DNA from: a virus
Taxonomy: Duplodnaviria > Heunggongvirae > Uroviricota > Caudoviricetes
DNA length: 53,208 nucleotides
Strand: one strand, 5' to 3'
IMG/VR virus record: IMGVR_UViG_2671181011_000016
Shown here: one piece after another, positions 1-53,208 of the stretch
Numbering within the stretch: the stretch's first letter is position 1
Layout: each line of letters begins with the position of its first letter
Notes under the pieces: model-generated
What the model was told of the DNA's origin: nothing
The model's input: the letters and a program-made list of their open reading frames with translations, nothing else
Database searches by the model: none
Position numbers and translations under genes: made by a program

Positions 1-2259
1 TTATTCTTCGCTTCCTGTTAACTGCCGGACAAGCGCTTCAAGTTTAGTGATCCGCTCATCCATGACGGCAATGTTAGCGCGTAAGCTGGCGTTTTCCTCT
101 TCCAGTTCGGTGACGCGGTTATCTGTTTCGCGTGCCACCTGGACAAGTAAACCAGTCACCGCAGCGTAGTCAACATTGAGGTAACGCGTTTCCTCGCGTA
201 GCTCGTTGCCGTCAGTGGTCGGGCCTTGTAATGCTTTACCGTAATGAGTAAACGATCCCACAGCCTCCGGCAGCGCCTCCATTACCTCTTGAGCGATAAC
301 GCCAGCGTAAGGCAGGCCGTTTTCCTTGAGGGTGTAGGTGTACCCGTTCATTTTACGGATTGCTTCAGTTGCATCACCTATAACCTGAATGTTGTCCTTC
401 AGATCGCGATCTGAAGTCTGATTAACTGCTGTGCAGTTTACTACGCCGTTAACCTGAAAACTAATTACTCCGTCTGGGTTAAGCTGGCAATAAAAGCCAT
501 ATGTATTATACTCATCGGTTTCAGCGTTCGAGAGTCCATATTCTAAAACGGACTGCCTTGTTTCTGATCCCCATAAGCGTAACCGTGCGTTTGTTTTTGC
601 GTTTTCTATCACATCGATAGTTAAACGTCTTGTGAAATCATAAGAGTTAATTTTTGTCGTCACAAAATGCTGGCCGGCAGTCCATTTTTGACCGGATGTG
701 TTAAGCGTAGCTAGTTGACGCCATTCCTGAACTGTTCCGTTTTCAATTGTTCTACCCCAAAAACCGGAATTTCGACCTCCGAATTGCACAGCGTAATTTG
801 TGCTGTATTGCGCATGGAAGCCGCCAAGCACCATTGCTCCGGCGGGGCCGTTTGTACTTCCCGCCATTGGGATAAATTTTTGGATATTGTCGGTGTGCTG
901 AGTATTCCAGTCCCTTCCTGTTTTTACGAGTACACCTAAATTTGCGTCTAGCGCCTCAGCTAACGTAAGGTTTTTGAATTTAACCGCATTGCTTTCACCA
1001 AGATTTAAATTATTTCTCGCGTCAGATGCTGTTAGCGCACCTGTCCCACCCTGGGATAATGACAAAGGAACCCATCCAGATCCGTTATGACAACCCCACA
1101 ATCCAGATGTTGACACCTGAAGGCGTGGCGCTTCTGGTAAATATTTCGAATAAACGTAAGTGGTGGATTCGCCTTCTTCAACTCTTTCTATTAATACTAT
1201 TTTTTTCCATGCGGTCCAACCTTGTGTGCTGGTATGTGTCCTTGCATAAAAAATTGATGAATTGTTATATACAAAATATTTCTGGATACAACCATCACTA
1301 CCATTAGCACCAGTTCTTTGCACTAACAACGAGCCAGCAAGCTGTATAGGGTAGTTTAATTCAGGTTTTGCGTTTACTGATAACGATTGATGATAAAAGC
1401 CTGCTGCGTTCCCTTTTAAGTCATCAAGATTCTGGCTATCGCTAAGGGTAGTTTTTGCATCATGCATAACCATTAGGTTTTTTCTTGCTTCTGCTTCATT
1501 CCCTGCACCAGTACCGCCAGCAGAAATTGAAAGCGGTATATATTTACTAGCCTCTGAGTCGAAACAACCCCACGAGCCGGAATCGTAGACGGTAAGGAAT
1601 TTATTTGCGTTTTGAGAGCATACGCGCGTTTCTCCTGTCCTCTGAACAAGCCTGTCTACTTCATTTTTTTTTGCGTGACGCGTCCAGTTAGCGCCTGATG
1701 TTGCGACCCATGTATACGTATAAAGTGATCGCGTAGCCCAACCGACAAAGACGCCTGTATATGAAGGCACTGTGTCTCGCTGACAGATAAATCCACTCAA
1801 AAATGATTCGCCAGCCGCTACGGAAGGAAAACCCTTAGTCGTTTCCTTTATGCGCAAAAAGCCAACGTAAGAAGACGGATCGCCTGATATATCGGCGCAA
1901 TCTCGCGGCTCTGGCCCCAAGCCAATATTGCTGCCATCTATTGCGCTGGATATTTCATCTTCCTTTTCCTGATAAAAACGAAGCGTTTCCGCTACATCCT
2001 GGGCAAGCCCATCAACTGAGATAGAGTCAGAAAGCAGAATGCTGAATTTTGCCCCGGCAGCAATTGCAGGGTTAGCCGCTGGCGTCACTGACAGTTCAGT
2101 GCCGCTCTTGATTTCAGTAACGGTAAAGATCTGAATAGGGTTGCTAATAGCAATAAGCGTGCAACCAACACGGATAAGAGAAAGCGGCGCGGAGAAGTTT
2201 GTGCCCGTGCCTTTAACAGTGTTGCCATTGATGGCAATTGTTCCAGTTGTGTAAATCAT
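1..2259 (-). CDS. tail fiber protein with C-terminal intramolecular chaperone (self-cleaving, peptidase S74-like) domain
   Basis: 752-aa ORF with stop at window start; Gly/Ser/Thr-rich body; C-terminus (...RYLNVDYAAVTGLLVQ... then coiled coil) resembles chaperone domains of phage fibres; last gene of the tail operon. Confidence 0.65.
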   Translation of the reverse strand: MIYTTGTIAINGNTVKGTGTNFSAPLSLIRVGCTLIAISNPIQIFTVTEIKSGTELSVTPAANPAIAAGAKFSILLSDSISVDGLAQDVAETLRFYQEKEDEISSAIDGSNIGLGPEPRDCADISGDPSSYVGFLRIKETTKGFPSVAAGESFLSGFICQRDTVPSYTGVFVGWATRSLYTYTWVATSGANWTRHAKKNEVDRLVQRTGETRVCSQNANKFLTVYDSGSWGCFDSEASKYIPLSISAGGTGAGNEAEARKNLMVMHDAKTTLSDSQNLDDLKGNAAGFYHQSLSVNAKPELNYPIQLAGSLLVQRTGANGSDGCIQKYFVYNNSSIFYARTHTSTQGWTAWKKIVLIERVEEGESTTYVYSKYLPEAPRLQVSTSGLWGCHNGSGWVPLSLSQGGTGALTASDARNNLNLGESNAVKFKNLTLAEALDANLGVLVKTGRDWNTQHTDNIQKFIPMAGSTNGPAGAMVLGGFHAQYSTNYAVQFGGRNSGFWGRTIENGTVQEWRQLATLNTSGQKWTAGQHFVTTKINSYDFTRRLTIDVIENAKTNARLRLWGSETRQSVLEYGLSNAETDEYNTYGFYCQLNPDGVISFQVNGVVNCTAVNQTSDRDLKDNIQVIGDATEAIRKMNGYTYTLKENGLPYAGVIAQEVMEALPEAVGSFTHYGKALQGPTTDGNELREETRYLNVDYAAVTGLLVQVARETDNRVTELEEENASLRANIAVMDERITKLEALVRQLTGSEE

Positions 2260-2436
2260 CGCAATGACTCCATTATGTTAATTAACGGAATAATTCTACC
2301 ATTTTGTGATTTTTGTTGCATTTTCTGCTTACACAAAATGTATTTTTTGATTTTTATCAATATACGAAATGTGGTTTTGTCGGATATTTAAGTCACCGGA
2401 TGAACCGGACGAACCAACAAGAATGAGGATTCAAAA

Positions 2437-2685
2437 ATGAAAAACGTGTTCAAAGTGGTTTTGTTCGCTGCGGCTGTAGCTCTTACTGGCTGTGCTGTTG
2501 ACAAAGAGGCTGCATTGCATAATCTGCCGAATAGCGGAGTAATTCCACAAGATGTCGTCTATGATGGCAGCGGTCATCTTGTCTATGACACTGAAAAACT
2601 GCCGTATACTGGGCAATGGTGTCATGAACTCGATCACAACATGCGCCGCATCGGTAGCCCGTCGAATTGTGTAGCTAACTACTAA
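2437..2685 (+). CDS. small lipoprotein (candidate Cor/Llp-type superinfection-exclusion protein)
   Basis: 82 aa; signal peptide with lipobox LTGC; two Cys in the mature part; opposite strand to flanking tail genes; function inferred from context only. Confidence 0.7.
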   Translation: MKNVFKVVLFAAAVALTGCAVDKEAALHNLPNSGVIPQDVVYDGSGHLVYDTEKLPYTGQWCHELDHNMRRIGSPSNCVANY

Positions 2686-2717
2686 AAGAAAACCCCGCGC
2701 GAAGCGGGGTTGTTTTT
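2684..2717. terminator. bidirectional rho-independent terminator
   Basis: A-tract, hairpin CCCCGC-GCGAA-GCGGGG (2693-2709), T-tract; sits between the convergent lipoprotein and J genes. Confidence 0.75.
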
Positions 2718-52128: not shown

Positions 52129-52304
52129 TGGTTCGTTACTACATGGCTAAACCTACAGGCATTTTGTATAAGATTGATGGCGAATATGTTTATTACTTTC
52201 ACAATCAGGCGCGTGAGTGGCGATTATGTCACGCGCACTTTCAGCACGAAATAGAAAACCATCCTGAATATTTTATCAAAGTTGACAATGTAACGGTGGC
52301 GTAA
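52128..52304 (+). CDS. hypothetical protein
   Basis: 58 aa; ATG overlaps ninB stop; not in the supplied ORF track (below cutoff). Confidence 0.4.
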   Translation: MVRYYMAKPTGILYKIDGEYVYYFHNQAREWRLCHAHFQHEIENHPEYFIKVDNVTVA

Positions 52305-52318
52305 TTGAGGATAAGAAA

Positions 52319-52978
52319 ATGAATAAACTTAAAGTAATTGGCGTGATTAGCCATCGTACTAACCCTGAGTGTTACCCATCGTTTGAGGTAACAACATGCC
52401 GCACAGAATATAATTTTGGATCATGCTATTTAATGGGCATTCGCGCTGACACTGGCGGCACTTATTCTGTTATGGCTGCAAGCTGGAAATTTGAAAAATA
52501 CGATGATTTATCGAATAAGGATGATGACGGCATGAATAAAGAAAGTGAAGTTGTTGATGAATTAATCGAAGACGAACGCCGTGACTGCGAAACGAAACAA
52601 GAAAAAACGGAATGGAAGCCAGGAGAAAAGCCGCCGTGCGGCGTGTGGCTTGAATGTTATTATCCTGATGGTTATCTAGTTGGGATTGTAATGTTTAAAT
52701 TTGTCGGTGATAAATTCGGTGTGTACACTGAAAAAGGCAGTAAACAGCAAGAACATACTATTGATTGGGGTTTTTGTAATTATTTTTTATATGTTGACCC
52801 GAAAGAAAAAGCACTTGCTGAAATCGCGTTTGCACTTGCTATCAAAGTTATGGGTGAAGACGCGGCAAAAGAGATTGACTTTAACCATGACAATGATTTT
52901 TCGTGCGATTATCGCAATATGGCGCAAGCTATTATTGATGGATGTATCGGACACGTTGAATACACGGGGAAAAGATAA
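52319..52978 (+). CDS. hypothetical protein
   Basis: 219 aa ORF; no recognisable domain. Confidence 0.5.
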   Translation: MNKLKVIGVISHRTNPECYPSFEVTTCRTEYNFGSCYLMGIRADTGGTYSVMAASWKFEKYDDLSNKDDDGMNKESEVVDELIEDERRDCETKQEKTEWKPGEKPPCGVWLECYYPDGYLVGIVMFKFVGDKFGVYTEKGSKQQEHTIDWGFCNYFLYVDPKEKALAEIAFALAIKVMGEDAAKEIDFNHDNDFSCDYRNMAQAIIDGCIGHVEYTGKR

Positions 52979-53208
52979 TGGATAAAACGGCAACAATTCT
53001 TCTTAGTCGCCCTGCCATCTGCCGTATGCTTGGGGGAATTAGCAGGGGAACGTTCTATTCATGGCGTAAAAAGTGGGAGGAAAACGGAACTCCATTCCCG
53101 GACCCTGTTGATGTGTTGGGGACCGGGAGGGGCGTCATGTACCGCTATCAGGATGTAATGCGGTTCTTTGATAAGATCGGATTAACGCCAGCCAGGGATA
53201 AGACGTAA
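52978..53208 (+). CDS. hypothetical small protein
   Basis: 76 aa; stop codon is the last 3 nt of the window. Confidence 0.45.
   Translation: MDKTATILLSRPAICRMLGGISRGTFYSWRKKWEENGTPFPDPVDVLGTGRGVMYRYQDVMRFFDKIGLTPARDKT

Follow-up and report, generated by a model that had tools for sequence, protein, structure and literature searches.

A conserved gene order unlike that of lambda in an IMG/VR phage genome assigned to the Escherichia coli mEpimmI group, with the integrase gene cut by the window edge

IMG/VR record IMGVR_UViG_2671181011_000016 is a stretch of 53,208 nucleotides of Caudoviricetes DNA, referred to here at its full length as the window. The repressor gene cI, an N-like antiterminator gene, the Erf and SSB genes, most nin-type genes, the Q-type antiterminator gene and the lysis and structural genes all lie on one strand, and the replication genes and NinB lie on the other. 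This layout had been described in a sequence-only reading of the window, and Pfam, PHROGs and tblastn confirm it. That reading left the choice between a distinct genome architecture, a rearrangement and an assembly inversion. We find that the first option is right, as the layout is conserved across a whole lineage. The window almost certainly covers nearly all of the genome (53.2 of about 54.5 kb) of a temperate siphovirus in the E. coli mEp021/mEpimmI group, and the absence of an integrase and an attachment (att) site is an artefact of the window boundary, not biology.

The one-strand layout is shared by all relatives

Both halves of the window were compared with GenBank phage records by megablast. 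The matches belonged to the mEp021 family, with one collinear place per record (mEp554, mEp010, mEp044, mEp515, mEp013, mEp021 and MagusPhagus). In the five best isolates, 83–91% of the query was covered at roughly 90–92% identity (87–91% for mEp554, mEp010, mEp044 and mEp021), and the related isolate genomes are 53–54.7 kb long. Alignment to related phages, which the sequence-only reading had proposed as a check, revealed end-to-end collinearity with mEp021 (MH706966.1): blastn gave an unbroken reverse-complement match to record positions 1340–53336 with zero inverted segments. By tblastn, 71 of the 82 mEp021 genes have a window counterpart of at least half length, all in the same order and on the same relative strand. 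The other 11 are accessory genes (two HNH endonucleases, a methylase, zinc-ribbon proteins, a lipoprotein and others).

Seven isolates of Mexican and US origin, each sequenced independently, share this order; one of them is MagusPhagus, an independent US isolate with the same junction. Complete E. coli chromosomes also match at one collinear place each, 27 of them for window positions 44000–53208 and 26 for positions 22000–46000. Furthermore, every IMG/VR contig that encodes this Q protein (45/45) has the same one-strand order, with cI, N-like, Erf, SSB, Dam, NinG, RusA, Q, lysozyme, TerS and TerL on one strand and the replication genes solely on the opposite strand, beyond cI.

These comparisons bear on the possibility that the window is a misassembled conventional lambdoid genome, inverted or chimeric either at the 44.2–45.6 kb junction or where the nin, Q and late genes join the N operon. 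Beyond the fact that the layout looks odd a priori when set beside lambda, we found nothing to suggest such an artefact, and the same junctions recur in the seven isolates, in the 26–27 complete chromosomes and in all 45 IMG/VR contigs. The junction also has a coherent regulatory anatomy, consisting of cI, a terminator, a sigma-70-like promoter, nutR1 and the N-like gene, with nutL on the other strand before the replication genes. An assembly inversion, which the collinearity with mEp021 refutes, is therefore given virtually no weight here.

The mEpimmI group has been defined from six isolates and 42 further genomes with a 'conserved genome architecture' (Negrete-Mendez 2025, PMC11893012), and it comprises mEp021, mEp010, mEp013, mEp044, mEp515, mEp554, MagusPhagus and about 40 E. 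coli prophages. The isolates depend on Nus factors, have siphovirus morphology and yield no viable hybrids with lambda, which makes them non-lambdoid by the criterion of hybrid formation (PMC11893012). Because the maps in the 2025 paper and the GenBank annotation of mEp021, available since 2018, already display this arrangement, the architecture itself is known. The paper gives no leftward or rightward account of the layout and makes no mention of Cro, operators or an excisionase (PMC11893012). To the published picture we add an excisionase candidate, the identical boxA and spacer of nutL and nutR2, and a dispersed 15-mer.

Three nut sites and the control region around cI

The N-like protein Gp17 of the group has conserved residues R17, R19, R20 and R24 and acts at three nut sites, with nutL near or upstream of the repressor gene, nutR1 upstream of gp17 and nutR2 after the methylase gene (PMC11893012). 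Read from its sequence, the Gp17 of the window (MSVTIIYGKCDSKMNARERRRIKRE) has R17, R19, R20, R21 and R24, and a boxA with a hairpin is present at all three nut positions (Table 1). nutL and nutR2 carry an identical 17-mer, GCTCTTTAAAAATCCGG, that comprises the same boxA and spacer, and their boxB stems are similar; the two may represent a duplicated nut module. At 17 nt upstream of nutR2 stands CCATTTTGTATACTT. A fourth match to GCTCWTTAA, at 43101–43109 on the plus strand, is wrongly oriented and falls where the Erf and SSB genes meet; we took it to be fortuitous.

No inverted repeat in the window is stronger than the pair made by nutL and nutR2, which spans 37 nt at 78% complementarity with 8.7 kb between the two sites. 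They bracket cI, the N-like gene and the entire recombination and methylase block.

A 37-nt inverted repeat of this kind would be compatible with a recent rearrangement of a lambdoid phage that is private to this one genome, and in formal terms the layout looks like a lambda genome in which the recombination-N-cI-cro-O-P-ninB block has been turned round against the nin-Q-late block. However, the arrangement is common to every relative examined, and therefore any rearrangement must be older than the whole group. Like misassembly, a private event is refuted by the collinearity with mEp021, and we hold it to be extremely improbable. The orientation is identical in all relatives, with no sign of an inversion mediated by the nutL/nutR2 repeat. 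Flipping the segment between nutL and nutR2, as reasoned from the coordinates, does not restore the lambda order. An origin by a single inversion from a lambda-like ancestor was likewise rejected because the orientation of the integrase does not fit.

Terminators t1, t2 and t5 have been shown experimentally for mEp021 (PMC11893012), and the window has a t1 equivalent directly after cI and a t5-like hairpin just upstream of the holin gene. Among promoter-like sites in the region, the best match is a minus-strand candidate that could drive the N-like gene and the long one-strand arm. The candidate early promoter of the replication arm was read directly from the sequence and is not among the results of the consensus scan.

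The integrase gene is cut by the window edge

In the sequence-only reading, the window held no integrase, excisionase, att-like repeat or tRNA, and its rightward arm ran off the end. The statement is accurate insofar as there is no full-length integrase open reading frame (ORF), no tRNA by a tRNA scan and no att repeat in the window. It fails for the integrase, as the 3′ end of the gene lies inside the window and is cut by its edge, and for the excisionase, as a candidate is present. Nor does the arm run off the end: its last gene stops at the final base, and in relatives a convergent integrase gene comes next.

Both edges of the window fall exactly on stop codons, at positions 1–3 (the fibre gene) and 53206–53208 (the last plus-strand gene); therefore the window is a gene-delimited slice of a genome of about 54.5 kb. 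The integrase 3′ end overlaps the last plus-strand gene convergently by 61 nt. In mEp021, int occupies record positions 186–1400 and converges on gp02 (1340–1570) with the same 61-nt overlap, and the window ends at record position 1340.

The last 80 nt of the window were used for an exact-match scan of IMG/VR, GTDB genomes and metagenomes. The scan returned one IMG/VR contig (L004; 54,420 bp, 96.3% identical to the window over 5.8 kb) and one metagenome contig (L005; 54,376 bp, 98.3% identical over 3.6 kb), and no match in GTDB genome contigs. The two contigs are close relatives, and neither is the source of the window. In both contigs, a 404-aa integrase ORF converges on the last window gene, and beyond it come about 336 bp that hold attP and then the end of a fibre gene that matches window positions 1–444, which leaves a gap of about 1.49 kb between the two window ends. 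The 404-aa ORF of L004 contains the Pfam domains Phage_integrase and Arm-DNA-bind_3. The 19 codons visible in the window, YVLSLAGVNPILSKNRITS, are identical to the C-terminus of the integrases of mEp554, L004 and L005, which is that of type I, and differ from mEp021 at three positions.

The attachment site was located through the E. coli WCHEC025970 prophage, which has the helix-turn-helix gene, the convergent integrase and a disrupted dgcM (ydaM). The phage form and this prophage are homologous up to a point in the 5′ end of dgcM that lies about 190 bp upstream of the integrase start. This point, which coincides with the linearisation point of the mEp021 record, is the att core. Such a position agrees with the published site for the group, in which four integrase types (I–IV) with mapped att sites direct insertion into ydaM, abgT or mppA, type I at ydaM (PMC11893012). 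The integrase and att site that the sequence-only reading had proposed to look for beyond the window are both found in near-identical contigs. It had also allowed that an extended sequence might show a conventional arrangement; extension does restore int and att, but the order stays unlike that of lambda.

Outside the window, in the phage-form junction, a 22-nt repeat, TTTGGTCAC(A/G)ATTTGGTACACA, flanks the attP core (L005 4815–4836 and 5055–5076; L003 16370–16391) and is a plausible arm-type binding site of the integrase. Tandem GAACGGAT(A/T)TTAACAC repeats lie between the 22-nt repeat and the attP core.

An element without an integrase, whether a defective ('grounded') prophage or a phage maintained without integration, would account for the lack of a complete integrase ORF, tRNA or att repeat in 53.2 kb. 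We consider this very unlikely, since an in-frame integrase 3′ end with its stop codon is present at 53148–53207, contigs 96–98% identical to the window carry intact 404-aa integrases with this same C-terminus, and none of the 48 published members of the group lacks an integrase gene (PMC11893012). A window end that falls exactly on a stop codon also suggests slicing rather than a biological end. For windows sliced at gene boundaries, a statement such as 'no integrase' is an unsafe claim of absence.

The last gene of the replication arm is an excisionase candidate

The last plus-strand gene encodes a 76-aa protein with a small winged-helix DNA-binding fold of the Xis/AlpA type. It is most likely the excisionase. 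This reading is supported because the protein co-varies with the integrase and the 3′ ends of the two adjoining genes overlap in both integrase types. In type-I partners the integrase is 96–97% and the 76-aa protein 95% identical to that of the window. In comparison with the type-II phage mEp010, the integrase falls to 50% and the 76-aa protein to 43%, while the next gene inward is still 74% identical.

Family searches with the 76-aa protein gave Pfam HTH_23 only, with NCBIfam Xis_Gifsy_1 at 17 bits against a cut-off of 60, and no curated excisionase family was reached in Pfam or NCBIfam. Matches to PDB sequences were at chance level, and the homologues, all of them in about 15 E. coli clusters, have uninformative names. 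Unlike the AlpA, Xis and RdfS excisionases, whose genes are co-transcribed with int, the 76-aa gene converges on int and overlaps it.

A lambda-type set of parts wired in another order

The window shares many components with lambda, P22, HK97, 21 and 82. A CI/LexA-type repressor gene lies between divergent early promoters in the same direction as the N-like gene, and there are boxA/boxB nut sites with an N-like protein, a Q-family antiterminator, NinB, NinF, NinG and RusA. The recombination module is of P22 style (Erf, SSB and an anti-RecBCD-like protein), the tail genes M, L, K, I and J are lambda-like, and a tyrosine integrase is paired with a small directionality factor. CI and both N-type and Q-type antiterminators, as expected of a lambdoid phage, are therefore present.

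The order of these parts is not lambdoid. In lambda the late genes follow cro, replication and nin, and int and xis end the N arm; in the window it is the N/recombination operon, not the replication operon, that leads into the nin-Q-lysis-structural block, and the last gene of the replication operon is the xis candidate, where it meets int head-on. Other differences from lambda are three nut sites instead of two in this group, an int transcribed from the att side inward and tail genes broken by opposite-strand islands. The group thus has lambda-type parts (CI, N/nut, Q, nin and Erf) in another order, with late genes fed from the N operon, as already published.

The layout most likely works as follows. 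Upon loss of the repressor, two divergent early transcripts would start, one on each side of cI. The short one would pass nutL and cover the replication genes and NinB, with the excisionase candidate last, before running antisense into int. The long one would supply Gp17, which lets RNA polymerase pass one terminator after another and so reach the recombination and methylase genes; beyond nutR2 this transcript would continue into NinF, NinG, RusA and Q. Q presumably opens the terminator ahead of the lysis and virion genes. In this scheme we infer the promoter positions, the Q step, the excisionase role and a possible antisense interference of the replication-arm transcript with int.

Several points weigh against our interpretation of the window. 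The nut coordinates combine sequence features with the positional description in PMC11893012, the promoters are consensus matches only, and Pfam and PHROGs searches of the whole window found no Cro homologue. In addition, we infer an intact integrase in this genome from 19 codons and from relatives that are 96–98% identical, and the excisionase role and the Q-dependent step are predictions.

The absence of Cro concerns the first gene opposite cI, where lambdoid phages have cro; here that gene has no match to a Cro family. Its 84-aa product matches the N-terminal domain alone of O-type initiators, although a functional analogue of Cro may exist. The 84-aa protein is only 37% identical to mEp021 gp14, with neighbours at 85–96%. 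No cII homologue was found anywhere in the window.

Placement within the mEpimmI group

Whole-genome similarity and conserved architecture place the window in the mEpimmI group, and it shows every testable trait of the group other than the integrase type, of which 19 codons are visible. The CI-like repressor of mEp021 (Rep021) has been shown experimentally to confer immunity, and the group is a single immunity group with a highly conserved repressor, 95.95% similar among its members (PMC11893012). With a repressor 96% identical to Rep021, the window most likely has the same immunity as mEp021. Against named isolates, coverage multiplied by identity is about 80%, which is not a VIRIDIC value, and the window probably represents a separate species of the same genus or a neighbouring one. 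It adds a member, probably at species level, to a group of temperate gut E. coli phages that was defined recently and is fairly common, with prophages of this type in about 0.65% of complete E. coli genomes.

In common with mEp021, the window has the convergent overlap of int and the helix-turn-helix gene, a 19-codon integrase C-terminus that matches type I, and the opposite-strand islands in the tail cluster. It differs in lacking both HNH genes, the gp5 methylase, gp12, gp65/66, gp72 and gp80/81 of mEp021, and in having a Bro/ANT protein in place of a zinc-ribbon protein, a distinct distal fibre and lipoprotein region, and extra small ORFs between Q and the lysis genes. Segments without a nucleotide match in mEp021 (25708–26610, 28741–30185, 30687–31755, 32935–34444 and 47303–48081) are flexible content. 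They hold the small ORFs between Q and the lysis genes, the stretch between TerS and the gp49 homologue, and the Bro-N/ANT gene.

A dispersed motif conserved across the group

A 13-mer, CCATTTTGTAWAC, occurs in 11 copies at no more than one mismatch in the window, against 0.22 expected by chance (about 50-fold). The motif is not palindromic. Ten copies are at equivalent positions in mEp021, the copies are positionally conserved in 40 IMG/VR loci, and across relatives the 13-mer extends to a 15-mer, CCATTTTGTAWACTT. One copy is found 17 nt upstream of nutR2, another 78 nt upstream of nutL and a third right beside the −35 element of the main early promoter candidate; others are upstream of L, M, the tape-measure gene, the DnaB gene and an early ORF. 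The 15-mer is absent from the 2025 group paper (PMC11893012), and a literature search for it returned unrelated primer sequences only.

Our best guess is that the 15-mer is a promoter −10 region or a regulator binding site. Clustered operators in the style of lambda are not supported in their simple form, as degenerate copies do not cluster in threes at early promoters. The layout could conceivably be run by three promoter-plus-nut units instead of two, because nutL and nutR2 are each preceded by a copy of this group-specific 15-mer; the TAWACT part of the motif resembles a −10 element. We regard this three-unit arrangement as tentative and rather doubtful. If the 15-mer does mark repressor-controlled or factor-dependent promoters, the nin-Q block would count as the third early operon that depends on N, and a dedicated dispersed element would make transcription of the tail genes start afresh past each opposite-strand island. 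Such wiring is not described in the 2025 group paper (PMC11893012).

Gene content and minor features

Coordinates of all features are collected in Table 1. The identity of the portal gene is supported by its PHROGs match, which agrees with its position between TerL and the head-morphogenesis gene. A homologue in E. coli prophages bears the RefSeq name 'anti-CBASS protein Acb1 family protein', which is probably a misleading automatic name.

Table 1. Positions of genes, control elements and repeated motifs in the window
Feature	Position	Strand	Basis or remark
Packaging/head/tail run, TerS to distal fibre	1–25602	−	Pfam, PHROGs, tblastn
Distal tail fibre	1–2259	−	Stop codon at 1–3
J	2716–7482	−	Tail tip protein gene
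Tail-cluster island 1	9536–10314	+	Between L and M; short ANT/KilAC-like protein, 10066–10314
Tail-cluster island 2	11819–12247	+	Between M and tape-measure gene; ParE-like toxin domain protein, 11993–12247, Pfam 3.7e-11
Tail-cluster island 3	14990–15406	+	Between tape-measure gene and upstream tail genes; 138-aa protein
Portal	22187–23578	−	phrog_146, 5.5e-113
TerS/TerL	23636–25602	−	Pfam, PHROGs, tblastn
Holin, lysozyme and Rz-like lysis genes	27481–28631	−	Pfam lysozyme; tblastn gp46–gp48
t5-like terminator	28656–28674	−	Terminator search
NinF-NinG-RusA-Q block	34448–36781	−	Pfam and tblastn vs mEp021 gp34–gp37
Q-type late antiterminator	34448–35170	−	Pfam Antiterm (PF03589), 2.8e-29
RusA	35560–35988	−	Pfam, 1.5e-14
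NinG	35985–36680	−	Pfam, 2.9e-68
NinF-like	~36608–36781	−	tblastn vs mEp021 gp34–gp37
nutR2	36806–36842	−	Boundary of methylase and nin-Q blocks; fits published position downstream of methylase gene
Recombination/modification block	36941–43747	−	Erf, SSB, anti-RecBCD-like, small ORFs, ipe, Dam, membrane protein, C5 methylase; Pfam, PHROGs, tblastn vs mEp021 gp19–gp33
C5 cytosine methylase	36941–37723	−	Pfam, PHROGs
Dam methylase	38694–39251	−	Pfam, PHROGs
SSB	42687–43106	−	Pfam, PHROGs, tblastn
Erf	43106–43747	−	Pfam, PHROGs, tblastn
Gp17-type N-like antiterminator, 96 aa	43897–44187	−	PHROG 271 'anti-termination protein N-like', E 1.3e-13; 92.7% to mEp021 Gp17
nutR1	44243–44280	−	boxA GCTCATTAACAA, boxB hairpin GCCGC-TGGAAGT-GCGGC; upstream of N-like gene; fits published position
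Early promoter candidate	44536–44564	−	TTGACT-17-TATATT, 10/12 consensus matches
Terminator hairpin, t1 equivalent	44665–44682	−	mEp021 TERM_1 at same relative place
CI-type repressor	44688–45335	−	HTH_3 and Peptidase_S24 (Pfam); 96% identity to Rep021 (mEp021 gp15)
Replication-arm early promoter candidate	45395–45423	+	TTGATC-16-TAAACT; −10 inside 15-mer copy CCATTTTGTAAACTT
nutL	45500–45536	+	boxA GCTCTTTAAAAA, boxB hairpin TCGCT-GCGA-AGCGA; on replication-arm transcript; fits published position
Replication arm, initiator to 219-aa protein	45642–52978	+	Pfam, PHROGs, tblastn vs mEp021 gp3–gp14
O-N-terminal-like winged helix, 84 aa	45642–45896	+	8 PHROGs, best 8e-19; Pfam HTH_36
Lin1244-type replication initiator	45900–46958	+	Pfam/PHROGs
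Bro/ANT	47266–48069	+	Pfam/PHROGs
Exonuclease-like	48079–49221	+	Pfam/PHROGs
DnaB helicase	49240–50655	+	Pfam/PHROGs
MarR-like, 185 aa	50732–51289	+	Followed by small ORFs
NinB	51697–52128	+	Pfam/PHROGs
219-aa protein	52319–52978	+	tblastn
Excisionase candidate (recombination directionality factor), 76-aa winged-helix protein	52978–53208	+	Last gene of replication arm
Tyrosine integrase 3′ end, last 19 codons and stop	53148–53208	−	YVLSLAGVNPILSKNRITS-stop in last 60 nt (53148–53207)
13-mer copies	9509–9521, 11735–11747, 14769–14781, 36859–36871, 40453–40465	−	
13-mer copies	22363–22375, 30896–30908, 36927–36939, 44566–44578, 45409–45421, 49211–49223	+	

A scan of the whole window with Rfam at gathering thresholds returned no family. 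The three opposite-strand islands in the tail cluster are conserved in mEp021, and the 138-aa protein of the third has no family match. A palindromic bidirectional terminator lies at 10976–11019. Finally, the C-terminal third of the J-like tip protein contains five tandem units of 108 nt (36 aa) at 3791–4446 on the minus strand, with 65–71% mutual identity, and these repeats also give staggered self-matches to mEp021 J.

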